Below are positions 9,061-55,043 of a stretch of DNA of 64,000 nt, in pieces. The notes beneath the pieces were generated by a model. It saw only the letters and a program-made list of their open reading frames with translations. It ran no database searches and was not told where the DNA came from. Made by a program: the position numbers and the translations under genes. Numbering within the stretch: position 1 is the stretch's first letter; every line of letters begins with the position of its first letter. The stretch covers positions 13,188 through 77,187 of the forward strand of contig JBAQUS010000004.1 in assembly GCA_049297675.1 (NCBI GenBank). Direction: 5' to 3'. The DNA comes from Minisyncoccia bacterium (GTDB taxonomy: Bacteria > Patescibacteriota > Minisyncoccia > Phycocordibacterales > DATDWN01).

Positions 9061-9552
9061 TTAGAGCTCTATACGAAAAAATACTTGTGGTCCCCATTTT
9101 GATTCCAAGGGAAAACTTTTAATAATCCTCTCCTTATAATGCCTGGATATATTTTCAGCAAAGTCATTTGCAATAAGAGCATTTCTTTCTAGATATTTAA
9201 AGCCACGAATCTTTAATTCATTTTCCAATTTATCCATAATAACCCCGAGTAGACCCTTACCCCTATAATCTTTTTTAATCACCGTGTCCCACATCCATGC
9301 AGTTTCTCCAGGTAAGGCTGGACTACCAGATGTTTCTGGTTCCATTGGTTTAGCATAAGCAAAGCCAATTATTTCTTGATTATCAAGATTTTTTAATAAT
9401 ACAATGGTATTTTCAGAATTTATAAAATCTTTCTCCAGTTCATCTTCAGTAAAAGGATGTTGTTCAAAAGCCTCATTTTCCAAAGAAATAATAGAATCTT
9501 TTGTTTCATTCCAACTAGATTGGTTACTATTAAATACCTCTGCCAAAATCAT
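9061..9552 (-). CDS. GNAT family N-acetyltransferase
   Basis: KDYRGKGLLGVIMDKLENE (acetyl-CoA binding R/Q-x-x-G-x-G/A motif). Confidence 0.6.
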   Translation of the reverse strand: MILAEVFNSNQSSWNETKDSIISLENEAFEQHPFTEDELEKDFINSENTIVLLKNLDNQEIIGFAYAKPMEPETSGSPALPGETAWMWDTVIKKDYRGKGLLGVIMDKLENELKIRGFKYLERNALIANDFAENISRHYKERIIKSFPLESKWGPQVFFRIEL

Positions 9553-9601
9553 GTATACATTATATCAGTTTTATTCTGCTAATGTTTCTGTTTCGTTTAT
9601 T

Positions 9602-10666
9602 TTAATTTTCCCTCTTAGCTTCATTATTTGCTCTTTCAACCATAAATTTCACTGATTCATTCATATTAATATCCTGTATCTGAATACTAGGTCTCTTATT
9701 TTTAAAAACTCTATAAATCTCATCTGCAAAAGCTTGTCCAACCGTAGGAACTTTATCGTAATCCATAATAATCACCTTAAATTTCTCAAGACCAGAAAGA
9801 ACTCTGCGGGCTTGTGATCGAGATATGTGTACTCCGCCCATAACATACAATCTAACTCTTATTTCAGTTTTATCAAATCCGTAGTCACTATTTTCACCTA
9901 CGTTTGTATACTTTTTAAATATATCACTCAGATGATGTCTATCACCAACATTCACACGAAAAGTAACCTTCGTGCCCTGTTTCTGACCTTTGACTTTTTT
10001 AATAAAAATATCTTTTATTACATTATTAGCAATAAATTGATAACCATAACTATTTAGTATAAACTCGTCACCAATTTTCGAAGTGAAAAAAATACCCTCA
10101 CCGGAGTGAAGCTTAGGGGCTGTTGTAGTTTTACCTTTAAGTAAATCTTGTATAGCTTCAATTTCAGAGTGTAAGTGTTTTTTTTGCATAATATTTCTAA
10201 AAGCACCAATACCAAAGTCGTCAACAATGAAAGTTAAGACATTTTTATTAAGAGAAACAAATATCTTTATTTTCTTTGAAGTTGAGTGTTCAATGGCATT
10301 ATTTAGCATTTCGGAAAACGCATATTCAAAAATACTTTTTACATTTTCAGATATTTTTAACACTGGAAGAAATTGCTTTTCAATATCATTAAAAATTTTA
10401 TGTTCTTCTAAATTTTTATTTGTTAGGATTTTTGAGTATGAGTTTGGCGCAAGTTTTGTATTCTTTTGCAAAAATTCTTCAGTAGTATAAAAGGCTGATC
10501 GTGTTGAGCCAATCTTAATAATCATGTTTTCATACACCAAACTTGATAGAAGTTTTGAAACGTACTGCCTAGACACACCAAAAGGCTCAATAAAATCCGA
10601 AGACCTTACCGTTCCCTTTTCTTTTATCTCTTGTATTATTTTTGCTTTAGTAAGCATTGTAAACAT
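9602..10666 (-). CDS. HTH + GHKL/HATPase_c-like ATP-binding domain + DUF4325 (STAS-like) protein
   Basis: N-terminal HTH (GVSRQYVSKLLSSL). N-box-like EMLNNAIEHS and FIVDDFGIGA. C-terminal ISRSQARRVLSGLEKFKVIIMDYDKVPTVGQAFADEIYRVF is the typical DUF4325. Confidence 0.5.
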   Translation of the reverse strand: MFTMLTKAKIIQEIKEKGTVRSSDFIEPFGVSRQYVSKLLSSLVYENMIIKIGSTRSAFYTTEEFLQKNTKLAPNSYSKILTNKNLEEHKIFNDIEKQFLPVLKISENVKSIFEYAFSEMLNNAIEHSTSKKIKIFVSLNKNVLTFIVDDFGIGAFRNIMQKKHLHSEIEAIQDLLKGKTTTAPKLHSGEGIFFTSKIGDEFILNSYGYQFIANNVIKDIFIKKVKGQKQGTKVTFRVNVGDRHHLSDIFKKYTNVGENSDYGFDKTEIRVRLYVMGGVHISRSQARRVLSGLEKFKVIIMDYDKVPTVGQAFADEIYRVFKNKRPSIQIQDINMNESVKFMVERANNEAKREN

Positions 10667-10725: not shown

Positions 10726-11328
10726 TTAAATCCAGTTATTTTCCGTTAGAAAACCCTTAACCTTCTCATATATTTTACGATGTCCTTCAGCATTGGGATG
10801 CAGACCATCATCAAAGTCCTCATTTTCAAGTAACCCTACATCTAGAAAAGGAACGTTGTTTTCTCTACAAACCTCTTCCATTATCTTGCTATATTTCTTT
10901 ATATTCTCATTTGTGTAATAAATAGGAATCCAAGGTACTGGGGTTGTTTTAGATTCATCACAGTTTTTCAAATCCATAAAAACAATTTTGTCAGTAATCT
11001 TTTTTGCTCTTTTGATTATTTCTTCAAGATTACTCCTGAATTTCTCTGGCTGAACCATAAAATTACCTGGTTTATCATAAGAAGCATCATTACCACCAGT
11101 TTGAAATATAATTGCATCAGCACCTCTTATCTTTGCTTCATTTTCAAATCTCTCCAAAATTGTCTCTGTTGTTCCTCCAGAAATACTTTGATTATATATT
11201 TCTACATAATCTTCGTCTCTTTTTGCAACATAAAACCAAAGACGATTTACCCATCCACCTTTTTCCATATCCCAAGCGCCCCAAGCTGTGCTATCTCCAA
11301 ATATACAAATAGATTCTGGCTTTTTCAT
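10726..11328 (-). CDS. SGNH/GDSL family hydrolase (lipase/esterase)
   Basis: ICIFGDSTAWGAWD (GDS), FQTGGNDAS (GGND), DGLHPN (DxxH). Confidence 0.85.
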   Translation of the reverse strand: MKKPESICIFGDSTAWGAWDMEKGGWVNRLWFYVAKRDEDYVEIYNQSISGGTTETILERFENEAKIRGADAIIFQTGGNDASYDKPGNFMVQPEKFRSNLEEIIKRAKKITDKIVFMDLKNCDESKTTPVPWIPIYYTNENIKKYSKIMEEVCRENNVPFLDVGLLENEDFDDGLHPNAEGHRKIYEKVKGFLTENNWI

Positions 11329-11413
11329 ATAGTTTCTAAAGGATAAATATCAATACCCCCGCAACATTTTCTTCAGTTTCTCCATGTCTAACTAAAAATA
11401 ATTTCATATAAAT

Positions 11414-11977
11414 TTATATATCTAAGTTAATTACTTTGTACTCATATTCCTTAAGAAATAAATTCTCTAAGTCTTGTGCTATATCTTTGAATACATCCTT
11501 ATATTCCTCTTTATAATGGGGAATGATTTTAAGAGGAAGAATACCAAGACCTTCCATTATTTGATTTGCACTTGGACTAAAGAAGAATCTACCAAATACA
11601 TTCGCACCAGCTGACTCTCCAGCTACGGTTTTTCCTTTCAATGAGTCTTTCAATTCAGGAAACTTTTTCAATGCCTCTAGTAGTTTTAGAGAAGTGCCAC
11701 CTTGAAAATATATAATATCCGCATATTTTACCTGTTCAATAAAAGACTCTTCATTCGCAACCTCAAAGTTAAGTTTCTCTTGGTGTTTATTTTGATTAAA
11801 TTCACCCTTAACTCTTTCTGTGGTGATATGTATTCGTTCAATATCTTTTGCAAAAGGAACAATCAAAACCTTTGCATTTTCAGGAGCATCTTTCAGGATT
11901 TCCTTATAGAAATCTGAATTATTCTCTTCTTGATTACCAGGAGTGAACCCCCCATGGAGAATAAACTTTGTTTTCAT
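11414..11977 (-). CDS. peptidase S51 family (dipeptidase E-like) / type-1 glutamine amidotransferase-like
   Basis: YFQGGTSLKLLEALKK ... GESAGANVFG resembles the S51 nucleophile region. Confidence 0.5.
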   Translation of the reverse strand: MKTKFILHGGFTPGNQEENNSDFYKEILKDAPENAKVLIVPFAKDIERIHITTERVKGEFNQNKHQEKLNFEVANEESFIEQVKYADIIYFQGGTSLKLLEALKKFPELKDSLKGKTVAGESAGANVFGRFFFSPSANQIMEGLGILPLKIIPHYKEEYKDVFKDIAQDLENLFLKEYEYKVINLDI

Positions 11978-12381
11978 ATAACTTTACCTAAATTACCATT
12001 CAAAATAATAGCGTCATAAGCCTGGAGTTCATCGTCAATGTATTTTTGATGTGGTAAAGAATTAAGAACAAAAATTTTCTTATCTCTATAATGAGCAAAC
12101 GCCATTTCAAGAAAAGTGCTAGCGCCAATATAATTTTCGATATCTCCTTTTGTATAATTACAGACTAATATAGCATCTGAGGCTTCAATTTTGTCTAAAT
12201 GTACTTTTGCTAAATTTAAACTTTTCTTTGCTTCCACACGACTCGAGCCATCTTCACTGAAATAATCTACATTTTCAACCTTTATTGGTCTGTACACTTC
12301 ATGACCATTGGCCTCAAGTTGTTTTTGAATTTCAATCATATTATCAAAAAACTTTATTGATCCACAAAGCGTAATTTTCAT
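11974..12381 (-). CDS. nucleoside 2-deoxyribosyltransferase-like protein
   Basis: MKITLCGSIKF... start and GASTFLEMAFAHYRDKKIFVL (conserved Glu region of NDT-like proteins). Confidence 0.45.
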   Translation of the reverse strand: MKITLCGSIKFFDNMIEIQKQLEANGHEVYRPIKVENVDYFSEDGSSRVEAKKSLNLAKVHLDKIEASDAILVCNYTKGDIENYIGASTFLEMAFAHYRDKKIFVLNSLPHQKYIDDELQAYDAIILNGNLGKVI

Positions 12382-12384
12382 AAG

Positions 12385-12945
12385 TTATGATTTTAATCCG
12401 AATAATTTTTGACCCTCATCAAACAAATCGAGCATATCCTTCGAAAGAATGAGTGGGATAAACTTTTGTCTATCTTCTGGAGTAAGATTGTTTAGAGAAT
12501 CAATCTTCCAAGCTTCAAAGCCTATCGCTTTACCGGACTCGACCTGAAGGTCGCTGACCTTACCATCAAAAAGATAAACGTATTGTGAACGAATAGTATT
12601 ATTCGTAAGTTTTGTTACTTCATCAAAACTTTTCTTAAACATCTTTTTTACTAGCTTTAATTTTGAAAGATCTACATTAATTCCAGTTTCTTCTTTACAT
12701 TCTTTAACCGCTGTCTCATCATAAGTCATTTTTGGATCAACATGCCCACCAACAGTTGCATCAAGAAGATCTGGATATGTGTCTTTATCTTTTGCTCGAT
12801 GTTGGAAAACAATCTCCCTATCTGGAGTTATAAACCAAATATGAATTTCGCGATGCAATAATCCTTTTTCATGAACAGTTTTCCTTGGTTCAAGACCAAT
12901 TATTTCATCATTTTCATTTACAACTTCAAGCATTTCTTCTTTCAT
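12385..12945 (-). CDS. NUDIX hydrolase
   Basis: Nudix box GGHVDPKMTYDETAVKECKEETGINV. Confidence 0.85.
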   Translation of the reverse strand: MKEEMLEVVNENDEIIGLEPRKTVHEKGLLHREIHIWFITPDREIVFQHRAKDKDTYPDLLDATVGGHVDPKMTYDETAVKECKEETGINVDLSKLKLVKKMFKKSFDEVTKLTNNTIRSQYVYLFDGKVSDLQVESGKAIGFEAWKIDSLNNLTPEDRQKFIPLILSKDMLDLFDEGQKLFGLKS

Positions 12946-12956
12946 ATTTAGTATAA

Positions 12957-12996
12957 TAACAAAAAATCACCGAGTTGTATCGGTGATTTTTTGTCT
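12957..12996. terminator. rho-independent terminator hairpin aaaaaatcaccgagttgtatcggtgattttttgt; conserved copy also at ~33943-33977
   Basis: Perfect stem flanked by A/T runs, downstream of the minus-strand tRNA-Gln. It could act in either direction. Confidence 0.6.
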
Positions 12997-31884: not shown

Positions 31885-32433
31885 ATGAAGTTGCCGACTG
31901 TATCAGCGAATACTATCGTCCGAAGTTGGGATGGTAGACTAGTCATTGTCAAACACAAACAGAAAGCCTACGACATTAGGCTCGAATGTCCGTGGGGTCT
32001 GCCAGGAGGTGGACTTGAAGACGGTGAAACTCCAATCGAAAATGCGATAAGAGAAACGAGACAAGAGATTGGAGTGGATATCAAAGCTCCAAAACTCATC
32101 GGAACGTTCATCCAGAGAGTTAGGGATGACGAAGCTCCGGGTGGCTTCGTCAGTGGCGTACTCCACCTTTTTGTATCAATTGAGTCAGATTTGGAAGGAA
32201 GGATCAGATGGGAAGGATGTGACGAAATAGAGGAGATTGCCCTTCTTGCACCCAAATCCATCTGCGAAAAACGACAGGAGATCGGACTCGGCTACTTTCG
32301 CATGATTCTCAAGTACATGAGATGCATCGACGGTGCTGACAGGTACGGATTCCAAAACCTCCGACTGTCCTTACCTGTTGAGTATCCACGATTCGGACTA
32401 AAAGACAAAGACCAACTTGTTCTTCAGACTTAA
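31885..32433 (+). CDS. NUDIX hydrolase
   Basis: Nudix box GGGLEDGETPIENAIRETRQEIGVD. Strong SD aaaggagg upstream. Confidence 0.75.
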   Translation: MKLPTVSANTIVRSWDGRLVIVKHKQKAYDIRLECPWGLPGGGLEDGETPIENAIRETRQEIGVDIKAPKLIGTFIQRVRDDEAPGGFVSGVLHLFVSIESDLEGRIRWEGCDEIEEIALLAPKSICEKRQEIGLGYFRMILKYMRCIDGADRYGFQNLRLSLPVEYPRFGLKDKDQLVLQT

Positions 32434-44257: not shown

Positions 44258-44580
44258 TGAGTAACAGAAATCAAAGACTAAGTGAAATTCTAAGAGATTT
44301 AGGTGCCCGTTTTCTGCTTCTTAATGGAAACAAATCCTCGCTTTTAACCGTGACAAAATTGGAATTAACAAGGGATGGAAAAAATGCTACTATTTTCTTT
44401 ACGGTTTTTCCAAATAGTTTTGAAAAAACTGCTCTTGAGTTTGCCAAGAGAAAAAGAAGTGATTTTAGAGAATTCGTTAAGGAAAATTCAAAACTAGGAC
44501 ACCTCCCCCAGTTTGATTTTGAAATTGATCTAGGAGAGAAAAACCGTCAAAAAATTGACGGATTATTAAATGAAAAATGA
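44257..44580 (+). CDS. rbfA: ribosome-binding factor A
   Basis: Position directly after infB. RbfA-like N-terminus (NQRLSEILRDLGARFLLL) and length. Confidence 0.65.
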   Translation: MSNRNQRLSEILRDLGARFLLLNGNKSSLLTVTKLELTRDGKNATIFFTVFPNSFEKTALEFAKRKRSDFREFVKENSKLGHLPQFDFEIDLGEKNRQKIDGLLNEK

Positions 44581-44650
44581 CCTAGTCGCCAAGTGGTAAG
44601 GCAAAGCTCTGCAAAAGCTTTATACGGCGGTTCGATTCCGCCCTAGGTCT
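44579..44650 (+). tRNA. tRNA-Cys (anticodon GCA)
   Basis: Manual fold: acceptor gacctag/ctaggtc, anticodon stem aagct/agctt with loop CTGCAAA, T arm ggcgg-ttcgatt-ccgcc. Starts 2 nt inside the rbfA stop codon. Confidence 0.75.
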
Positions 44651-44719
44651 CCCTAAAACATTTACACAGTAAGTGTTTGGGTGAACAATTCATCCAGAGA
44701 GTTGTTGTAACCAAATTTT

Positions 44720-44801
44720 GCTCGGGTGGCGGAACTGGTATACGCGTTCGACTTAAAATCGAATCCCGAAAGGGGTATGGGTTCGATTCCCATCCCGAGC
44801 A
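44720..44801 (+). tRNA. tRNA-Leu (anticodon TAA), type II
   Basis: Acceptor gctcggg/cccgagc, anticodon stem ttcga/tcgaa with loop CTTAAAA, long variable arm, T arm atggg-ttcgatt-cccat. Confidence 0.8.
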
Positions 44802-44850
44802 CAAAATTGAAATAAACTAAAATTAATGTTATAAATTTAAAGTAAAATTT

Positions 44851-44923
44851 GCGCCTATAGCTCAGCTGGTAGAGCAGATCCCTCTTAAGGATAAGGTCCC
44901 AGGTTCGATCCCTGGTGGGCGCA
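44851..44923 (+). tRNA. tRNA-Lys (anticodon CTT)
   Basis: Acceptor gcgccta/tgggcgc (one G-U), D arm gctc-agctggta-gagc, anticodon loop CTCTTAA, T arm ccagg-ttcgatc-cctgg. Confidence 0.75.
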
Positions 44924-45119
44924 CAAGCCGAAATAATCTAAACTGCTTTAGATTATTTCGGACTTGTGCGCAACCAGAATATACCTTTAGGTGATTCTGG
45001 TTGAGGTTTCGGGCTTGTGCGTTATTAAAACATGTTTACTAAATAGTTTGAATCGTGGTTTCAAATTTGTGTGTGAAAGTAAGATAGCAATATAATGTTT
45101 TAGTTTCAAGTTAACAATT

Positions 45120-45203
45120 GGGCGAGTGGCGTAACAGTAGCCGCGCCAGTCTTAGGAACTGGTCCCGTAAGGGGTGGAGGTGCGATTCCTCTCTCGCCCA
45201 CCA
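45120..45203 (+). tRNA. tRNA-Leu (anticodon TAG), type II, CCA encoded
   Basis: Acceptor gggcgag/ctcgccc, anticodon stem ccagt/actgg with loop CTTAGGA, long variable arm, T arm ggagg-tgcgatt-cctct, then ACCA. Confidence 0.8.
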
Positions 45204-45490: not shown

Positions 45491-45515
45491 CTGTCAAACA
45501 TCCGATGTTTGACAG
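45491..45515. repeat. REP-like palindrome ctgtcaaacatcCgatgtttgacag (copy 1 of 3 around RAYT-1)
   Basis: Palindrome tgtcaaacatc-N-gatgtttgaca, also seen at ~46022-46046 and ~46241-46277. Confidence 0.65.
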
Positions 45516-45555: not shown

Positions 45556-46215
45556 TTATACTTCAAAAGTTTTGGTGTCAGCTTTTACCCCGCTATTTTT
45601 TACAAATTTATAATATTCATATTTATCCTCAAATTGGTCTAATACTACTTCCCTTTTTAATATTTCCTTCCAACGATTTTCTGTAACGTAATCCTGATAG
45701 CTAGACCACTCATATTTTTCTGGATTATTACTCCAATGTGAAAGCTCTTTTGGATTTAAATGAACATACGCAGATAAATGTAGTAGTTGTTCATTACTTT
45801 CAACATGAACTGCTTTATACGGACCTTCAAAAAGATGCCCCGAAATTTTATATTTAGTATTGAAGTATTTTGTATACGAGTTAAGTACACGTTGCATATA
45901 TTTCCCAGTTCCACCTTCTTCATTTTCACGAACTATTAGATGAAAATGGTTAGTCATCATCGCAAAAGAAACTAGGTCAACGTATCTTTTCGAAATTATC
46001 TTTTCGTAATCATCACTGTTAATGTCAAACATCCGATGTTTGACATAATTCGAGATCATTCTTGAAACTTGAGGAAAAATAACATTTGCTTGAAAGTATA
46101 AAATGAGAAATAAAAATCTAATTCTATCTCTATCATCCTTGAAGATGATTTTCTTCCCAACTCCCCGATTATATATATGATAGTGTTCCCCAATTTCAAT
46201 ATTATCTCTTCTCAT
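45556..46215 (-). mobile_element. REP-associated tyrosine transposase (RAYT; IS200/IS605 TnpA-like HUH Y1 transposase)
   Basis: HYHIYNRGVGKKIIF, HUH motif MMTNHFHLIV, GHLFEGPYKAVHVESNEQLLHLSAYVHLNP (catalytic Tyr region). Flanked by, and containing, cognate REP palindromes. Confidence 0.8.
46022..46046. repeat. REP-like palindrome atgtcaaacatcCgatgtttgacat located inside the RAYT-1 coding sequence
   Basis: 25-bp perfect palindrome (single central base) seen in the sequence. Confidence 0.6.
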
Positions 46216-46240: not shown

Positions 46241-46277
46241 ATCCATCTGTCAAACATCGGATGTTTGACAGATGGAT
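46241..46277. repeat. 37-bp REP palindrome atccatctgtcaaacatcGgatgtttgacagatggat, upstream of RAYT-1
   Basis: Perfect palindrome. Central base G versus C in the other copies, i.e. the opposite orientation. Confidence 0.65.
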
Positions 46278-46372
46278 AAGATCGATTATTAGAAAGGCTT
46301 GTGATTTTTTTAAAATCGATCTTGTTGCAAATAACGGCTTAATGGTGGGGGTTTTTTGACGACACCCTTGAC

Positions 46373-46401
46373 TTGACTTTTGGATTTAATTGTGATAGAA
46401 T
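46373..46401 (+). promoter_or_regulatory. near-consensus sigma70-type promoter (TTGACT - 17 bp - TGaTAGAAT extended -10) for the GC-rich SPFH-like gene
   Basis: ttgacttttggatttaattgtgatagaat seen in the sequence. Inference only. Confidence 0.4.
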
Positions 46402-46499
46402 GGTGAGCAGAACGGGAGCGGCAATTCTTGCCCCTTTCGTCGCTCCTTGACACTCTAGTTTTTAGTTTACAAGCGCTTAAATGCGCAGAAGAGGTTAGC

Positions 46500-48038
46500 A
46501 TGTTTTACACTATCGCAATTTCCGTTCTCGTTGCAGTGACAATCTCGGTCCTGATCGTCGTCGGTTGGCTTATCTTCCGTGTCGTACAGACACGGAGGAG
46601 GACACCAGTCATTCATGATTGGGCGCGGAGGGATGATAGTCGCGAGACGACACCCTCCCCGACTCCTACCACGACATCCGGAATTGATGTCGACCTCACA
46701 CTGAATCCTCCCCGCCATACTCCGAAAGGAAATAGCGGAAGAGAACCCGAACCGTTGCCTCCATGTAAATGGAAAAAAGGCACGTTTCGTATCATCTACT
46801 GGGCGGTAATAATTCCGCTCGGAATGATATCTGTCTTCGTTCTGGAGTGGGGTATCCTATCGGGTCTGCCACTCACGTGGAATACCCTGTTGGAATTCAA
46901 CGCAACTTCAGTTGGGCTGACCCTTGTTGTTCTCTGGGTAGCCTACTTCTTGGACACATTCAAGATCGTCAAGTTCAATGAACTCGGCGGTCGTGTGGTA
47001 CTTGGTAGTTTCGAGTCCTACTCTGACGGGATAACTCTCGCACCGAGATGGATTACCGATCTGGTCAAGGTAACGAGAGCAACTGAAGAACTTGATCAAC
47101 CTCACAGTGACCCGTCAAAAATTTTCTGGGGAGACCTAAGCAAACTTCCAGACGGGAAAATCCCGGACGGTATGGTACTACCAATTCGTGTGCCATTCCT
47201 CCAGAGGTCAAGCGATGAAGACTTCGAAGTTCGCTGGCCACTTGAAACAGGAGAGGTCAAAACCAGAATTACAAAGGGCTATGACCTTCTTAGTGCAACG
47301 GATGCTCCTGTCGAGTATTCGATCGGAATCAGATTCATCGACATCCAACGTGTTATCGTTCGACTCAGGTCACTCAAAGCAGCCTACGACTTGGCAACAG
47401 ACTATGCAGAGACGCTCATAACGGGCACTTTGCAGAAAATGTCCGCTGCCGAAGCCCAAGTACTGAAACAGGAAATTTCAGTACATCTTGAGGAACAGAC
47501 GGACAACCGTGTTTTCCAATCGTACGGCTTCGTGATCGACTTCGTGACTTTGAAGTCAATCGGGACTTCGCACACAATCGCGGAATCGCGAGCGCAGGCG
47601 GCAGCAGCTGTCAACCTTGCGAATAAAACGGTTAGAGACGCAAAAGCTACAGCTAAGGCAACCGAACTTCAAGGTGCTTCTGTGGCTGGAGCTGAATTGG
47701 CACTACTCAACGCGAGGTCAGTAGGACTACGCAACATCGTCGACGCTGCGACTTCACGGTCAGGGGGAGTTGAACTCGCCAAAGCTATGGAAGCGGCACG
47801 CGCTATTCAGTTTGGCGCAGATTCGACAGTTGTTGTCCCAGGTGGAAACACTGGGGACGGTCTCGGACTCTTTGGCGCAGCGGTCGGTACAGCAATTAGT
47901 GCTTCGGCCGCACTTGGGAGAAAACCAGCTGGTGAAAAAGCTCTAACAGAGACCCAACCAGCACAACCAACAACTACTACAACACCCCCTGCACGTGGCG
48001 ACAGACGTGGCCATAAGAAAGGGGGTAAGAGGAGTTAG
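46500..48038 (+). CDS. GC-rich membrane protein with SPFH/band-7 (stomatin/flotillin-like) core and Ala-rich C-terminal tail
   Basis: Start taken at MFYTIAISVLVAV (TM). FKIVKFNELGGRVVLGSF...ITLAPRW resembles the SPFH start. AESRAQAAAAVNLANKTVRDAKATAKATELQGAS is an Ala-rich coiled region typical of HflK/flotillin tails. ~50-55% GC against a ~35% background. Confidence 0.4.
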   Translation: MFYTIAISVLVAVTISVLIVVGWLIFRVVQTRRRTPVIHDWARRDDSRETTPSPTPTTTSGIDVDLTLNPPRHTPKGNSGREPEPLPPCKWKKGTFRIIYWAVIIPLGMISVFVLEWGILSGLPLTWNTLLEFNATSVGLTLVVLWVAYFLDTFKIVKFNELGGRVVLGSFESYSDGITLAPRWITDLVKVTRATEELDQPHSDPSKIFWGDLSKLPDGKIPDGMVLPIRVPFLQRSSDEDFEVRWPLETGEVKTRITKGYDLLSATDAPVEYSIGIRFIDIQRVIVRLRSLKAAYDLATDYAETLITGTLQKMSAAEAQVLKQEISVHLEEQTDNRVFQSYGFVIDFVTLKSIGTSHTIAESRAQAAAAVNLANKTVRDAKATAKATELQGASVAGAELALLNARSVGLRNIVDAATSRSGGVELAKAMEAARAIQFGADSTVVVPGGNTGDGLGLFGAAVGTAISASAALGRKPAGEKALTETQPAQPTTTTTPPARGDRRGHKKGGKRS

Positions 48039-48040
48039 TC

Positions 48041-49396
48041 ATGCCTATCGTCGCAATCGTTATCGTACTCCTCTTTCTCGTCTTCGGACGAAGGAAAGGA
48101 AACGATAGCAAATACATTCGAGAGTCAGAGGTCGTTGATACCAAGCCAAATGGTAAAACAGAGACGGAAAAACACACTCTGTGGTGGCACGTCGGCCACT
48201 ACAAACTCGTGTGGCTACAGCACTGGAGGAGGTCAACAACCCTCCGTGTCTCCGCCGGACTGCTTGCTTTCGGGCTGGGAGTCTGGATCTTCCCTCTAAC
48301 GAGGGAATGGTGGAGTTCGCAGTGGGTTAGCTTCGGCCTTTACCTAATTGCCGCTCTGGCCATTATCTGCCTTGGGTTCATGTTGGGCCCGGCGCAGAAA
48401 GTGCCGTTCGAGTACAGGCTCCGGCCTTTATTGCTCATCATTGGAATTGCGATCGCAGTCTACGGACTCGGTGCGAACACCAAGTTCGGTCAGAGCACCT
48501 GGTCGTGGATCGCCTCTCACTTCGGGAGAACAGATGGAAACATCGGTCTAACTCCAGAGGAGACAGCTGACCTACCGGACGGGTTCGTCGAGAGCGACAA
48601 TCCGAACCACTGGTCAAACCACGTCACCGATGAAAATCGTGATGTGGTCAACATGGTCCGGGCTGCCGTCCAGAGCGAACTTGTCCCAACCCATTGGGAC
48701 CTCGCCATGCAGATCTGCGGTATGGAATCGGCATGGTTTCGTCAGTTCGATGAGGACGGTAATGTTCTCAGAAACGTCAAAAACAATGACGGGTCAATCG
48801 ACTACGGAGTCTGTCAGATCAACTCCATATGGATGAAAAAGTCCAAGGAGTTGGGAGATGGTTTCCGGATCGACGGGCCGGCTGACGAAAACATTCGAAT
48901 GGCCATGTGGATCTGGACGAATCCAGAAACACGTGGGCCACGCGAGTGGACCGGTACGTACAACACAGCTCTTGCTGTTGTCCGCAATGCGCGGACAACG
49001 CCAGAGACTGTGAACGCACGTCGAACTCCAGAGAGGTCACCGGCTGAACAGGAGACTGTTCAGGCTGGGATCGCACTGGTCTCACAAACTGAGCCAATTC
49101 ACCAGCAACGCAACCCACAAAGAGAGGTGTCTGTCACAGCCATGTTTCCAGGATGGGTCACCGACAAGTCCTCCATGACCTGCGACCTCGAAGAGGACGC
49201 AGAAATCGAGGCGGTCGGTGAGCCTGGAATATTTTACTGGAGTGACACAAACTTCAGTACGAACATCCTAAAGCCTGGAGAAACTGCTTCACTTGCTGGA
49301 TTCAAATGCGTTGCAGTCAGATACTTTTCCCCAACGTTTGGGGGAAAACTGACTGAGGGTCAGAGCCCTTACGCAATCGTGAGACGATACAAATAA
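48041..49396 (+). CDS. GC-rich polytopic membrane protein (4 TM) with C-terminal lysozyme-like / lytic-transglycosylase-like domain
   Basis: ICGMESAWFRQF...NNDGSIDYGVCQINSIWM. The catalytic E-S plus the DG-S-x-DYG-x-x-QIN-S motif is very close to the C-type lysozyme signature (FESNFNT...NTDGSTDYGIFQINSRWW) and compatible with the SLT E-S...GLMQ pattern. Confidence 0.55.
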   Translation: MPIVAIVIVLLFLVFGRRKGNDSKYIRESEVVDTKPNGKTETEKHTLWWHVGHYKLVWLQHWRRSTTLRVSAGLLAFGLGVWIFPLTREWWSSQWVSFGLYLIAALAIICLGFMLGPAQKVPFEYRLRPLLLIIGIAIAVYGLGANTKFGQSTWSWIASHFGRTDGNIGLTPEETADLPDGFVESDNPNHWSNHVTDENRDVVNMVRAAVQSELVPTHWDLAMQICGMESAWFRQFDEDGNVLRNVKNNDGSIDYGVCQINSIWMKKSKELGDGFRIDGPADENIRMAMWIWTNPETRGPREWTGTYNTALAVVRNARTTPETVNARRTPERSPAEQETVQAGIALVSQTEPIHQQRNPQREVSVTAMFPGWVTDKSSMTCDLEEDAEIEAVGEPGIFYWSDTNFSTNILKPGETASLAGFKCVAVRYFSPTFGGKLTEGQSPYAIVRRYK

Positions 49397-49431
49397 ACTA
49401 GAGTTAGAGAGGAGTACACATGTTCGCATGA

Positions 49432-49460
49432 GGCCGTTACCCGATAAGGGAACGGCCTCT
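49432..49460 (+). terminator. rho-independent terminator gaggccgttacccgataagggaacggcctc + T-run
   Basis: 9-bp GC stem followed by ttttta. Ends the GC-rich two-gene module. Confidence 0.7.
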
Positions 49461-49495
49461 TTTTATGCATGATGATATATAAAATTTCTCTACAG

Positions 49496-49526
49496 AAAAC
49501 CGCTCAAGTTGTGAGCGGTTTTCTGT
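49496..49526 (-). terminator. terminator hairpin agaaaaccgctcaagttgtgagcggttttct for the minus-strand pilin-like array
   Basis: Stem aaaaccgctca/tgagcggtttt, convergent with the 49432 terminator. Confidence 0.65.
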
Positions 49527-49536
49527 GACTAACTTG

Positions 49537-49852: not shown

Positions 49853-50206
49853 TTACAGACCTGTAACTGTTGGAACTGTACCAGTTGTGATGTTTTGAAC
49901 ACCAAATGTAGATTGTAACCATGCAACCAATCCGTAGATTGAGATCATGACTGCTATTGCAATCACACCCCAAATCATCTGGTTTCTACCTGCCTCCTGT
50001 GCCTTAGGATCCCCAGCTGAACGTAGGAATGTAACCAAGCCCCAGAAGAAGAACACTATCGCTAGACCGAAAACTATAGGGATAAGTGTTCTAACTGTTG
50101 TTGCAATGAAAGTAAGAAGTGCTTGCAAACCTGTTAAGTTTGGAGTCTGGGCGAAAGCCAAGACTGGAGCAAGAAAAGATCCTACTGAAATGACAATTTT
50201 TTTCAT
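49853..50206 (-). CDS. secreted two-TM TrbC/VirB2-like 'T4SS pilin' family protein (paralog 1)
   Basis: Signal peptide ending AFAQ. LIPIVFGLAIVFFFWGLVTFLRSAGDPKAQEAGRNQMIWGVIAIAVMISIYGLVAW. Confidence 0.6.
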   Translation of the reverse strand: MKKIVISVGSFLAPVLAFAQTPNLTGLQALLTFIATTVRTLIPIVFGLAIVFFFWGLVTFLRSAGDPKAQEAGRNQMIWGVIAIAVMISIYGLVAWLQSTFGVQNITTGTVPTVTGL

Positions 50207-51903: not shown

Positions 51904-52314
51904 TTAACCTAGAAAAGTTGGAATATTATCATCTAATAATGCTGTGGTGATAAGTCTAACTAACACCCAGGCGATTATTATAATAGCAATACCCTGTACA
52001 ACTTTAAGAAGCATACCCGCGGCTTTTGCCCGCTCCGAAGCACTCTCTCCACCCATCATAAACCTAAAGCCAGCCCAAGCGATAACTATAACAGAAAAAC
52101 CTAGGGCAAACTTAGTTCCTTCGTTTGTCACTCGTCTTACGGCTCTTATCAGGTCATCAAATGTACACTCTCCTGCTATCCCACCAACTCCGGGACACTC
52201 GTAAACAAACTGGGCATGGCTTACTAGTGGTGTAAAAAGAAAAAGAAAAACAAGAAACAGGAGAATTTTTGATGCCAAATTATTTAAAAATGTACTTCTC
52301 ATTTTGTTAAACAT
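51904..52314 (-). CDS. secreted two-TM pilin-like protein (divergent paralog 6, Cys-containing mature N-terminus)
   Basis: Signal peptide ..SHAQ. ...FSVIVIAWAGFRFMMGGESASERAKAAGMLLKVVQGIAIIIIAWVLV. Confidence 0.45.
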   Translation of the reverse strand: MFNKMRSTFLNNLASKILLFLVFLFLFTPLVSHAQFVYECPGVGGIAGECTFDDLIRAVRRVTNEGTKFALGFSVIVIAWAGFRFMMGGESASERAKAAGMLLKVVQGIAIIIIAWVLVRLITTALLDDNIPTFLG

Positions 52315-53603
52315 TATGATTTGATTAGAGCAGTCAGTTCTGTTTCCGCTCTGTTTAAGGCATCAGATGCTCTAGACCTTCCACTAGTTATGCTCTCAAT
52401 CATATCACGAAACAGATTTGAAGTTGCCTGTGGTTCAGGATCAATCCACGACCTGGAGATTAAGGCAGAATCATAGAATACTTGCATGTGAGCCTCTGGA
52501 GGCTTCACAGAAAGCATGTCTCTTCTTACAGGAGGTAGGTTTGTAATGCCACCTATTCCCTTTATAGCTTCGACCTCTGTCAGAGCGTTTAGGGCTATAA
52601 AGGAGGCCTGGATATTTTTGGATTGCTTTACAATGGATATACCGTAGAGATGTCCGAAAACTACTTTCTTTTTGCTATCTCTTATTTGTGGAACCGAAGT
52701 GACACCGTAATTTAGATTTGGATTTTTTTGTTGAATACCAACTAGCTCACTAGCAAAACCAAAATAAATAGCCAAATTTCCGGAGAGAAAGAAGTTGGAT
52801 GAAGATGGAAGGGACCTATTCCAGGAATATGAGACAAGGTTTGGATTAGAAAATTGGATGTAAAAATCTGTTGCTGACTGGCTCGGAGTCCTAGGATATC
52901 CGAACTGAAGGTTAAGCACTGTATCAAGCCCATTTTCCTCCCTCTGTATTATTGGTGTTCCAGCTTGGAGCATGAGCATTATGAGTAACTCCTTGGCACT
53001 TGTGATATTTCTCCATTCACCGAAAGCTATAGTTGATTGAGAAATATTGGCCTGACCGTCTTTTTTGGTGATCTTTGGAACCAAGTCTGGAATCTCGTCC
53101 CAGTATTTAGGAGGGGACGCAATAAAGTTGCTGGAGAATAAGTCTCTATTCCAATACATAACCATGGGATCAATAATGAATGGCAAAGCTAATATGCCTT
53201 CTGGAGTAAGAAACAATTCCCCTTCTTCTATAAACCTGTCCTTGAAATCCCTCTCTGGATAAAATTCCGATGGTATTGGATAAAGTTTATTTCTATTTTT
53301 GTAAACCAAATCCTCTCTAAGAATAACTATGTCTGGCCCTCTACCTTCTGCCAGAGCCTCGACAAAGTCTCTATCAAAATCTGATGGGTCCTTTCTGACA
53401 TACATCACTCTTATGTTTTTATTTCCAGAAAGTGACGAAGCTATATAAGCATTTGTAAATGCATCGTCCGAAATAGTTCCCCATGCGACTAGACCAGCAG
53501 ATACATTTGCTGTACCGGTATTTTTACTCAAGGCAAAAACCATAATACCTGCAACTATGGCCACAGAGAAGACGGCTATGACAGCTATTTTAAACGTACT
53601 CAT
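52314..53603 (-). CDS. membrane-anchored extracellular solute-binding-protein-like protein (family 1 SBP fold)
   Basis: N-terminal TM, then LVAWGTISDDAFTNAYIASS...FVEALAEGRGPDIVIL resembles SBP_bac_1 N-lobe. No adjacent permease or ATPase genes. Confidence 0.4.
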   Translation of the reverse strand: MSTFKIAVIAVFSVAIVAGIMVFALSKNTGTANVSAGLVAWGTISDDAFTNAYIASSLSGNKNIRVMYVRKDPSDFDRDFVEALAEGRGPDIVILREDLVYKNRNKLYPIPSEFYPERDFKDRFIEEGELFLTPEGILALPFIIDPMVMYWNRDLFSSNFIASPPKYWDEIPDLVPKITKKDGQANISQSTIAFGEWRNITSAKELLIMLMLQAGTPIIQREENGLDTVLNLQFGYPRTPSQSATDFYIQFSNPNLVSYSWNRSLPSSSNFFLSGNLAIYFGFASELVGIQQKNPNLNYGVTSVPQIRDSKKKVVFGHLYGISIVKQSKNIQASFIALNALTEVEAIKGIGGITNLPPVRRDMLSVKPPEAHMQVFYDSALISRSWIDPEPQATSNLFRDMIESITSGRSRASDALNRAETELTALIKS

Positions 53604-53640: not shown

Positions 53641-54168
53641 TTACATCTTCTTAAAGATTAATCCGTAGTGATGTGCTCCGGCGGAAATTTCCCTGTCTAT
53701 ACTAAAGCCCTGCTTTTCAAAAAGCTCTTTGGCTTTTGGTTTTTTAACAACATCGATCGGTTTTGGACCAATTCCACCGAATGAATCTGACCAGTCTATT
53801 ACCAATACCCTTCCCCCGGGTTTTAAAATTCTTTTGGCCTCTTTTATTGCCCCGACTTTATCATCTAGCTGAAAAAGAAGATTGCAAATAAAAACCAGAT
53901 CAACAGAAGAATCCCTAAGTTTTGCTCCATTTGGCTTTTCGACATTACCCCATACTACTTCTATGTTATAAAGGCCTTCTTTTGTTGAGTTATTTTTCAA
54001 TCTGGTCAGTAGCTCTTTATCTACGTCAATAGCGTAAACCCTACCAGTTGAAATGAGCGCCCTTGAAGCAGCCATGGAGTAATGTCCCGAGCCAGAACCA
54101 AAATCTGCAATATCCATCCCGGCCTGTATTCCACACTGCTCTATGTTTTTTATTGGATCGGAGAACAT
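53641..54168 (-). CDS. class I SAM-dependent methyltransferase
   Basis: Motif I IADFGSGSGHYS, motif II VDLVFICNLL, LKPGGRVLVIDW. Confidence 0.8.
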   Translation of the reverse strand: MFSDPIKNIEQCGIQAGMDIADFGSGSGHYSMAASRALISTGRVYAIDVDKELLTRLKNNSTKEGLYNIEVVWGNVEKPNGAKLRDSSVDLVFICNLLFQLDDKVGAIKEAKRILKPGGRVLVIDWSDSFGGIGPKPIDVVKKPKAKELFEKQGFSIDREISAGAHHYGLIFKKM

Positions 54169-54365: not shown

Positions 54366-55043
54366 CTAGTAACTATCTTTATATTCTAACCAATCAGTTA
54401 TATTATCATTAAAATCAAAGATACTTGAAAAATACTCAGGGAAATTAGTTTTGTCTAAAATCATACCCGCTTCCCTCTTTTGTCCGACATAATCTAAATA
54501 ACTAGAACAATCATAATTCGATAGAAATTTTTTAGCTTTACTAATGTTTTTTATTCCAGATTCTTTCCAGTCATATTCAATTAATTTAACTGGATTAAGA
54601 TGAATGTAAGAAAATAAATATTTCAAATATTCATCAGAGTCAGCATGTTCTGCTTTATATGTACCCTGAAACAACGAACCCACTCTATCATTTAATTTAT
54701 TAAAGTAGGTAGAATAGCCCGTAGTCAATTTTTCCATAAACATAGCTGTACCGCCCTCAACAATTTCTCTAACAAGAATATGAAAATGATTTGGCATTAA
54801 AACCCATGCTCCTATTGCAACGAGTTGCTCGCCCCTGTTAATATCTTTCAATGGTAAGTCTATTGTTGTGCTGTACCTATAAGGAAGAGTATTGTTTGCA
54901 AGATATAAGAGTCTAATAAATCTCTTATAATCATTCTGTGAAATAAAAATATCGCGCTTTTCAACTCCTCGATTATATATATGGTAAAACTCGCCTTCAG
55001 ATATGACTATTTTTCTTTGCATAGAAGCACTATATACTAACAA
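54366..55043 (-). mobile_element. REP-associated tyrosine transposase (RAYT; IS200/IS605 TnpA-like), second paralog
   Basis: FYHIYNRGVEKRDIF, HUH LMPNHFHILV, GSLFQGTYKAEHADSDEYLKYLFSYIHLNP. Flanked on both sides by ctagggtaaccctag REP palindromes. Confidence 0.8.

Follow-up and report, generated by a model that had tools for sequence, protein, structure and literature searches.

In the cage-forming SPFH systems described so far (HflK/C-FtsH, QmcA-YbbJ, SPFH-NfeD, stomatin and prohibitin), the SPFH fold is accompanied by a membrane anchor, a C-terminal coiled coil and a tail, and a membrane client is encoded in the same operon. A lysozyme/SLT-superfamily domain is found in VirB1 and in the TraG, PrgK and TgaA proteins of monoderm type IV secretion systems (T4SS). 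In the Patescibacteria (candidate phyla radiation, CPR), 441 VirB2 arrays have been reported, most genomes with VirB2 have no recognisable VirB1, and other glycosidases may substitute for it (PMC12102498). The vls cassettes of Borrelia, finally, are a gene-conversion locus that is maintained GC-rich (49% versus 28.6%; PMC11499132). Here we analysed an operon of two genes, geneA and geneB, located at positions 46373-49460 of a 64,000-nt stretch of a Minisyncoccia bacterium genome (positions 13,188 to 77,187 of contig JBAQUS010000004.1; referred to as the window). The operon, A-B, is native to this Minisyncoccia (CPR) lineage and vertically inherited, and it evolves far faster than its flanks, with deeply divergent allelic types. 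It is related to two known kinds of system, operons in which an SPFH protein is paired with a client and specialised muramidases that accompany a pilus; what is unusual is the persistence of its compositional anomaly.

The likeness to each described system is partial. GeneA has the SPFH fold, the anchor, the C-terminal coiled coil and the tail, and, judged from the sequence, it is co-transcribed with and translationally coupled to the polytopic geneB, as other SPFH proteins are to their clients. However, in contrast to the SPFH pairs with NfeD or a protease, the partner here is a lysozyme-like protein with four transmembrane (TM) segments and no NfeD, and geneA differs from known SPFH proteins in an extra N-terminal TM segment, a P/T-rich loop, an insertion in the SPFH domain and a Pfam score below the cut-off. 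Like VirB1 and the monoderm T4SS enzymes, geneB carries a lysozyme/SLT-superfamily domain with an ES...D-x-G-x-x-Q-I-N motif and is encoded beside VirB2-like pilins. Unlike them, it is anchored by four TM segments rather than secreted or bitopic, lacks a second CHAP or M23 domain, is not encoded next to virB4, is paired with an SPFH protein, scores better on glycoside hydrolase family 22 (GH22) than on SLT and keeps the equivalent of Asp52; none of the VirB1-type models tried retrieved it. With C-type (GH22) lysozyme, geneB shares a local motif (NNDGSIDYGVCQINS in geneB versus NTDGSTDYGILQINS) in which both catalytic residues align, but, as judged from sequence, only ~42-70 residues align, the disulfide cysteines are missing, and the remainder of the domain and the architecture appear to differ. 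A-B resembles the vls locus in lying ~15-20 GC points above the genome, in being conserved across lineages, in hypervariability and in segmental exchange, whereas it has no GC skew and no silent cassettes in the 64 kb, its variation was seen between lineages, and its products are a scaffold and an enzyme rather than a surface lipoprotein. The atypical GC content and codon usage, together with a nearby tRNA cluster and a transposase, are features of a classical genomic island, but the position of A-B is conserved in relatives, and neither an integrase, nor direct repeats, nor a donor was noted.

A GC-rich operon at a conserved chromosomal site

The GC content of segment 46373-49460 is 51.7%, compared with 36.5% in the remainder of the window (z = 8.9), and none of the other 3088-nt windows in the 64 kb exceeds 40.4%. 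Profiles computed over 100-200 nt change abruptly at ~46400 and ~49400. An earlier note on this DNA, made from the letters alone, had likewise singled out a GC-rich 3 kb in an AT-rich genome, with a codon usage of its own and Pro/Thr/Ala-rich linkers, and had read it as recent horizontal gene transfer (HGT) from a high-GC donor. The contrast in composition is as it described, and the linkers were found in the translations. The difference in codon usage is also real and includes the enrichment of CTC and CGC that had been claimed, but GCC is not enriched (0.17 versus 0.19). GC at third codon positions (GC3) is 0.48 in geneA and 0.60 in geneB, compared with ~0.27 in the other genes of the genome. 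The main change is a preference for C-ending over T-ending codons (NNC over NNT), with TTC rising from 0.22 to 0.73, TAC from 0.36 to 0.85 and ATC from 0.14 to 0.60, for an overall NNC fraction of 0.69 in A-B versus ~0.28. The usage of AAA, GCA, GGA and CCA is like that of the rest of the genome. GC3 at four-fold degenerate codons is 0.42-0.58 in A-B versus 0.17-0.30, and G-ending codons are raised too. The GC skew is ~0 across the segment, and searches of the window with blastn and tblastx detected neither a partial copy of the operon nor a silent cassette. Elsewhere in the window, a NUDIX hydrolase gene (31885-32433) ranks second in GC content among the genes (46.8%) and has an NNC fraction of 0.64.

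Each of the two proteins is identical to a hypothetical protein encoded in a Minisyncoccia (CPR/Patescibacteria) metagenome-assembled genome (MAG), and the remainder of the window is core chromosome (topA, dprA, relA/spoT, parB, murB, murA, miaA, clpB, infB, rbfA, gyrA and rpsA). We found the operon at the same site in nine related Minisyncoccia lineages (related loci are given below by L numbers); a tenth, L013, is a short contig with the A-B pair only. In all sufficiently long related contigs, A-B lies tail-to-tail with five to seven T4SS_pilin genes, followed by a MalE-like protein and a methyltransferase, in agreement with the link to a pilin array drawn in the earlier note. The loci with A-B and the pilin array are L004, L005, L009, L010, L015, L016, L017 and an 80-kb contig, P0013, and the L008 contig has geneB plus one pilin gene. 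Synteny is two-sided for L017, where, as in the window, A-B has ClpB-Trypsin-Aminotransferase-DUF4446-IF2-RbfA to its left and pilins-SBP-MTase-gyrA-Lactamase_B to its right (SBP, the solute-binding-protein homologue; MTase, the methyltransferase). Its flank proteins are 60-85% identical to those of the window, compared with 26% for geneA.

The sharp GC step, and the fact that the contig of the NCBI MAG runs only 23 nt past the geneB stop codon, could suggest that foreign sequence, from an assembly chimera or a contaminant, was joined to a CPR contig, and the earlier note had raised chimerism at the two junctions. However, the window agrees at 100% identity with three independent assemblies, the NCBI MAG (L002) and two SRA runs (L001, from Logan, and L003), which between them cover both GC junctions, and the same junctions are seen again in other lineages. 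This excludes a chimera, and we give artefactual joining a negligible probability. The L002 contig (JBAQRY010000020.1) ends at window position 49419, before the two terminator hairpins and the GC drop; this end is likely an assembly break point and not a biological boundary.

The GC excess is not peculiar to the window. In five lineages with low-GC flanks, the operon likewise has 49-56% GC. The fractions for module and flanks are 0.52 and 0.37 in L004, 0.55 and 0.35 in L005, 0.49-0.55 and 0.40-0.45 in L009, 0.50 and 0.35 in L013, 0.545 and 0.44 in L008, and 0.45 and 0.375 in L016. The corresponding values are 0.48-0.50 and 0.44 in L017, 0.48 and 0.43 in L015, 0.43 and 0.39 in L010, and 0.47 and 0.465 in L014. 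By re-encoding the module with the codon usage of the carrying genome, we separated the excess into an amino-acid part and a codon-choice part. The amino-acid part contributes +3.4 to +6.4 points in all lineages, which reflects the abundance of Ala, Thr, Pro, Gly, Arg and Trp in the proteins. Codon choice adds +8.6 points in the window, +10.8 in L004 and +14.1 in L005, compared with +3.2 in L016, +0.2 in L015 and +0.7 in L010. This synonymous contribution (+9 to +14 points) is confined to a subclade comprising the window, L004, L005, L008, L009 and L013, in which third positions are ~55-60% GC and near-flat in base composition (A 0.20-0.25, C 0.29-0.34, G 0.23-0.33, T 0.17-0.24).

We also asked how far synonymous sites have diverged. 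For the solute-binding-protein genes of the window and L004, identity at four-fold sites of conserved residues is 31%, with 30% expected by chance. Pairs of geneB sequences show 23-37% four-fold identity versus 25% by chance; the value for the window and L004 is 46%, which includes a recombinant tract (see below). Because four-fold identity between lineages is at the chance level, neutral sites have fully turned over while the GC excess has been kept. The persistence of synonymous GC despite this saturation implies that something actively maintains it.

Hypervariability of the operon is most apparent when the window is compared with L004. Flank proteins of the two are 74-95% identical; for geneB the identity drops to 43% over 297 aa, and BLASTP detects no match for geneA. 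The geneA sequences fall into two types that cannot be aligned with each other; the window, L009, L010 and L012-L017 carry type I, and L004 (4323-5495) and L005 (4360-5760) carry type II. The distribution of types conflicts both with flank relatedness and with the grouping of geneB, as seen for the window and L004, which are close by their flanks and differ in type. Within geneB, sliding identity and a codon alignment revealed a 132-nt mosaic tract (48884-49015, plus strand) that is 90% identical to L004, with surroundings that are ~50-70% identical or unalignable. Of the conserved degenerate codons in this tract, 29 of 34 are the same in the window and L004, compared with 10 of 25 for L008. 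The tract is direct evidence of recent segmental exchange. In the adjacent array, one pilin gene (pilin 2, 49853-50206; L004 7344-7697) reaches 95% protein identity and 84-93% DNA identity to L004, with its neighbours at ~74%. Its NNC fraction is 0.65 and its four-fold GC3 only 0.15-0.21. Pilin 2 is either a strongly constrained major pilin or the product of a recent exchange.

The products of geneA and geneB

GeneA (46500-48038, plus strand) encodes a predicted SPFH/Band-7 membrane scaffold of 512 aa, as judged from the family profile and the predicted fold. Translation starts at an ATG preceded by an AGAGG Shine-Dalgarno (SD) sequence; a longer reading from a TTG at 46428 would begin within the conserved leader. 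Hydropathy marks residues 7-25 and ~98-153 as hydrophobic. From the N-terminus, the layout is a TM segment (7-25), a K/R- and P/T-rich loop and a hydrophobic hairpin (~98-153), followed by the SPFH domain (~154-354; nt 46959-47561), a long coiled coil (358-438) and a P/T-rich basic tail. In a word-seeded protein search geneA was an orphan without relatives, whereas exhaustive phmmer searching recovered 92 relatives, linked at E values of 1e-50 to 1e-10. Of the 35 best, 33 match PF01145 (Band_7), the best at 2e-17; geneA of the window alone reaches 11.9 bits (E 0.23), below the curated cut-off of 23.6. Against the Protein Data Bank (PDB), the family profile retrieved QmcA, stomatin and HflK at E 2e-17, with HflK/C at ~1e-17. 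The AlphaFold2 (AF2) model has a predicted local distance difference test score (pLDDT) of 78.8, with a core above 90, and Foldseek matched it in the PDB to prohibitin, HflK/C, stomatin, erlin, QmcA and flotillin with a probability of 1.0 and E values down to 1.4e-10 over ~330 aligned columns. In the model, an SPFH alpha/beta fold is followed by a long coiled-coil helix and preceded by a membrane anchor. These data agree with the SPFH/band-7 call that had been made from the translation.

GeneB (48041-49396, plus strand) starts 2 nt past the geneA stop codon, and its SD sequence, AAGAGGAG, lies inside the sequence for the geneA tail; judged from this arrangement, its translation appears to be coupled to that of geneA. 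Hydropathy and the family profile indicate a protein of 451 aa with four TM segments (1-19, 68-86, 96-114 and 127-145, from 19-residue windows), a lysozyme-like domain (48608-48985, plus strand) and a variable, beta-rich C-terminal domain. By the positive-inside rule, the C-terminal part is predicted to be extracytoplasmic. Relatives were scarce, with four clusters among 5.8e9 protein clusters; together with the partner genes found 3' of geneA homologues (L009-L017), the family comprises ten sequences.

Taken alone, the window proteins gave no significant match in Pfam, NCBIfam, PHROGs or PADLOC; assignment to a family required profiles of homologues. Compared with the PDB, the geneB family profile retrieved C-type lysozymes at E 3e-6, and the single domain matched hen egg-white lysozyme (HEWL) at E 0.003. 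With hhalign, geneB and HEWL align with a probability of 95.2% (E 2.5e-8), and E35 and D52 of HEWL are placed opposite E229 and D254. Glu229 (nt 48725-48727) and Asp254 (nt 48800-48802) lie in the motif ...MQICGMES...NNDGSIDYGVCQINS..., in which E229-S230 stands opposite HEWL E35-S36, and D254 opposite D52 in the D-Y-G-x-x-Q-I-N strand. The catalytic Glu, in its E-S motif, and the Asp are each kept in nine of the ten family members. At E values up to 0.1, four of the ten match Pfam SLT and two match Lys, and the orthologue P0004 reaches 24.3 bits on SLT (cut-off 21.3). The lysozyme-like domain proposed in the earlier note is thus upheld by the family profile, by HEWL and by an orthologue above the Pfam cut-off, with the limit that the GH22 alignment spans only 42-70 residues, that the Pfam Lys cut-off is not reached and that similarity to GH22 does not extend over the full length. 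The AF2 model of geneB, computed from a four-sequence alignment, is unusable (pLDDT 41), so that a lysozyme fold is predicted from sequence similarity only. No Pfam match to NfeD was detected for geneB or its nine homologues at E up to 0.1, and PADLOC matched neither geneA nor geneB, nor the L004 pair.

The geneB partner is modular, and three versions depart from this pattern. The L017 version (11228-11959; 243 aa) has the TM block and the beta domain at the C-terminus, without the lysozyme-like domain, in the L016 version (9362-10465) the catalytic Glu is replaced by Lys, and the L015 version (11749-12993) has no catalytic Asp.

Operon signals and neighbouring genes

The near-consensus promoter and the strong GC-stem terminator that had been described for the segment were both recovered. 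A consensus scan located a sigma-70-type promoter, TTGACT-17-(TG)aTAGAAT (46373-46401, plus strand), with 10 of 12 matches and an extended -10 element. The box CTTGACTTTT...TGATAGAAT is found 5' of geneA in eight further lineages, with a degenerate version in L014, and blastn aligned 46350-46461 with L004 at 78.8% identity. The promoter box together with a 70-105-nt leader is recognisable in nine lineages; the leader of the window (46402-46499, plus strand) has equivalents in L004, L005, L009, L010, L012, L013, L015 and L016. RNAalifold applied to nine leaders predicted a conserved hairpin (46413-46449, plus strand) with 12 pairs, 7 of them with compensatory changes. Paired cells amount to 85% compared with 72% in shuffled alignments (0 of 500 reach 85%) and 35-53% in slid controls. 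The 3' arm of the hairpin, GCUCCUUG, resembles an anti-Shine-Dalgarno sequence and is located 5' of a GAAAGGA SD sequence; the hairpin may act as a translational switch, a putative regulatory role. Rfam has no family for the leader, and the tRNA-to-transposase spacer matches tRNA only. The database starts of the geneA homologues P0006 and P0007 (L009 142 and L010 4203) fall inside the conserved promoter, and the true starts are probably the downstream ATGs after GAAAGGA (MSYFEAI... and MDHPIRF...).

The intrinsic terminator of A-B, GAGGCCGUU.CCC...GGGAACGGCCUC followed by UUUUU, extends from 49430 to 49464 on the plus strand (hairpin 49430-49459, T-run 49460-49464). The 74-nt segment 49397-49470 has a predicted folding energy (dG) of -25.7 kcal/mol (z = -4.5), and none of 200 shuffled sequences was as stable. 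It faces the terminator of the convergent pilin operon (49480-49536, minus strand), which has a perfect 17-bp stem (dG -27.5 kcal/mol, z = -8.3). The pilin operon comprises seven VirB2-like T4SS_pilin genes (PF18895; 49537-52314, minus strand). Co-oriented with the pilins, and syntenic in relatives, are the genes for the MalE-like solute-binding-protein homologue (52314-53603, minus strand) and the class I methyltransferase (53641-54168, minus strand). The methyltransferase matches the PADLOC model 'mad2' at E 1e-21 over the SAM-binding region, which probably reflects generic class I methyltransferase similarity.

Upstream, four tRNA genes (Cys-GCA, Leu-TAA, Lys-CTT and Leu-TAG; 44579-45203) lie directly 3' of rbfA. 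A tRNA-Leu(TAG) gene is also found 5' of the operon in L004, L014, L015 and L016; it therefore looks like ordinary synteny, and we rejected tRNA-targeted integration. Between tRNA-Leu and the operon promoter lies a gene for an IS200/RAYT-like Y1 transposase (45556-46215, minus strand), which has a perfect palindrome, CTGTCAAACATC.GATGTTTGACAG, on either side (45491-45515 and 46247-46271) and a third, nearly identical copy within the coding sequence (46022-46046). This transposase is lineage-specific and absent from that position in all other lineages examined. A second Y1_Tnp paralogue (54366-55043) is 38% identical to the first. A composite transposon between the two was rejected given this low identity and the relatives without copies at these positions.

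Cause of the GC excess and proposed function

The explanation that we consider best overall, and probably correct, is that of a native operon encoding an SPFH-restrained wall hydrolase, the GC content of which is kept high by biased conversion. For the composition, this would mean that frequent inter-allelic recombination with GC-biased gene conversion (gBGC) keeps the operon GC-rich, which we regard as the most likely cause and also as the weakest step of the argument; high expression, with selection for C-ending codons, may contribute as well. It fits gBGC that the GC-rich and the hypervariable blocks coincide, as does the mosaic tract, and across bacteria the GC content of genes is positively linked to recombination, independently of codon selection (PMC4450053). 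Several observations weigh against biased conversion. The distant lineages L010, L014 and L015 show little or no synonymous shift. Pilin 2 is close to L004 in DNA yet AT-rich at four-fold sites, so that recombination, if it is the cause of this similarity, raised no GC there. A rise of 30 points at third positions exceeds the effects of gBGC known in bacteria. The flat GC skew and the lack of silent cassettes in the window are, again, unlike vls.

Three other accounts of the composition have to be weighed against this one. The recent acquisition of a two-gene island from a high-GC donor, an actinobacterial host or a phage, and not yet ameliorated, as the earlier note had proposed, would account for the strongly atypical composition with sharp boundaries, the tRNA cluster and IS200-like transposase immediately upstream, and the operon's own promoter and terminator. 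However, the operon occupies the same syntenic site in nine related lineages, of which L017 has synteny on both sides and no transposase, the promoter and leader were inherited together with it, and relatives match it in GC content despite the saturation of synonymous sites. The finding that relatives with low-GC flanks carry the operon at similar GC is what the note itself had named as speaking against recent transfer. Actinobacterial third positions are roughly 80-90% GC, whereas GC3 of the operon is just 0.48-0.67 and the ~55-60% GC of third positions in the GC-rich subclade is far below that range; AAA, GCA, GGA and CCA are used as in the rest of the genome. No donor homologue, and none outside this CPR context, was detected in 5.8e9 protein clusters, GTDB species genomes, JGI metagenomes, IMG/VR, or phage or plasmid records. 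A scan of GTDB species genomes, JGI metagenomes and IMG/VR with the geneB alignment gave pattern matches and no confirmed relative, and phage and plasmid records searched by tblastn with the two proteins gave nothing. We consider recent transfer very unlikely. Repeated allelic replacement would instead have each lineage import A-B from an unsampled pool of related CPR bacteria at ~50-55% GC, by homologous recombination anchored in the promoter and leader and on the pilin side, so that the GC content would be the donor's. The two unalignable geneA types, which contradict flank relatedness (type I in the window, type II in L004), the recent 132-nt exchange tract, the match between the GC boundaries and the edges of the variable coding block, and the existence of higher-GC relatives with the locus (L014, L015 and L017) are all in its favour. 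Yet members of the GC-rich geneB subclade adjoin low-GC genes wherever the contig reaches a neighbour, with none in a high-GC genome, the geneB of the higher-GC relatives is distant, with short BLASTP matches (22-45% over 40-328 aa), and four independent collections yielded no other source, which makes importation improbable. We rate as equally improbable that selection on the transcript or its translation is responsible, through very high expression, C-ending codons matched to G34 tRNAs and a stable GC-rich mRNA, with recombination incidental. The near-consensus promoter with its extended -10 element, conserved across lineages, and the strong SD sequences are consistent with this, and the NNC shift is paralleled, more weakly, in the gene for ribosomal protein S1 (rpsA, 0.45), the only reference used from among ribosomal protein and EF-Tu genes, as well as in the most conserved pilin (0.65). 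But codon optimisation does not predict the rise of four-fold GC3 and of G-ending codons, pilin 2 combines a high NNC fraction with a four-fold GC3 of 0.15, and L010 and L015 have the same promoter without a synonymous shift. As sole cause, pure codon optimisation was rejected given the rise in four-fold GC3.

With respect to function, tight translational coupling and universal co-occurrence suggest that geneA and geneB act together. The invariable pilin linkage and the scarcity of VirB1 in Patescibacteria suggest a wall-breaching (VirB1-like) or host-wall-attacking role, and by analogy with known systems A-B likely functions as an SPFH-organised wall hydrolase serving the pilus or host contact. 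GeneA probably forms an SPFH ring or cage in the membrane that corrals and restrains geneB, as for HflK/C-FtsH and QmcA-YbbJ, and such a ring would limit where and when the external lysozyme-like domain cuts peptidoglycan. The target might be the cell's own wall, to let a VirB2-like pilus through, or the wall of an attached host, and the variable C-terminal domain of geneB may supply binding specificity. The hypervariability itself suggests a role in an arms race or in host specificity. Other data argue against a restrained wall hydrolase of the pilus. No ORF (open reading frame) of VirB4 or VirD4 size was found in the 64-kb window, where the ORFs of at least 600 aa are topA, clpB and gyrA only. 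Given the loss of the domain in L017, of the Glu in L016 and of the Asp in L015, enzyme activity is not indispensable to the pair. The positive-inside rule would place the SPFH domain in the cytoplasm and the lysozyme domain on the outer side of the membrane, and contact between the proteins would then need their membrane parts. The structure model of geneB is, as noted, of no help.

A different role for the pair is possible, if clearly less probable: an offensive or competitive surface muramidase directed against the host or against rivals, with the SPFH protein as a membrane-protective or immunity partner, or else a defence or abortive-lysis system. The hypervariable exposed parts and C-terminal domain of geneB, the existence of allelic types, the retention of both catalytic residues of true lysozymes and the episymbiotic life of CPR bacteria would all fit such a module. 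In Southlakia epibionticum, moreover, epibiotic growth requires lysozyme and peptidase genes that lie near virB4 (PMC12102498). On the other hand, PADLOC, PHROG and NCBIfam match neither protein, and the pair and its pilin linkage persist in lineages that have lost the enzyme domain or catalytic residues. A more speculative extension of the wall-hydrolase model, which we consider doubtful at present, is that A-B is a recombination-driven diversification cassette of CPR episymbionts, in which a hypervariable, SPFH-caged surface muramidase sets host or pilus specificity, alleles pass from lineage to lineage in short gene-conversion tracts, and GC-biased conversion keeps the GC content of the locus 15-20 points higher than that of the genome.

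Collectively, the textbook signature of a foreign island, with a GC step, a codon shift, a tRNA cluster and a transposase, marks here an ancient resident operon, which calls for caution in scans based on such features. Synonymous sites that have kept ~55-60% GC while diverging to saturation, within genomes of 35-38% GC, provide a clean natural test case for biased conversion versus selection on base composition. With a lysozyme-like enzyme and an SPFH scaffold locked to a pilin array across lineages, A-B is a candidate for the missing VirB1 role. If the model of an SPFH cage with a muramidase client is true, it would add a new class of client to the SPFH family. A diversification cassette, if that is what A-B is, would be a bacterial counterpart of GC enrichment at recombination hotspots and the factor, so far missing, that breaches the wall for VirB2-like pili in Patescibacteria.

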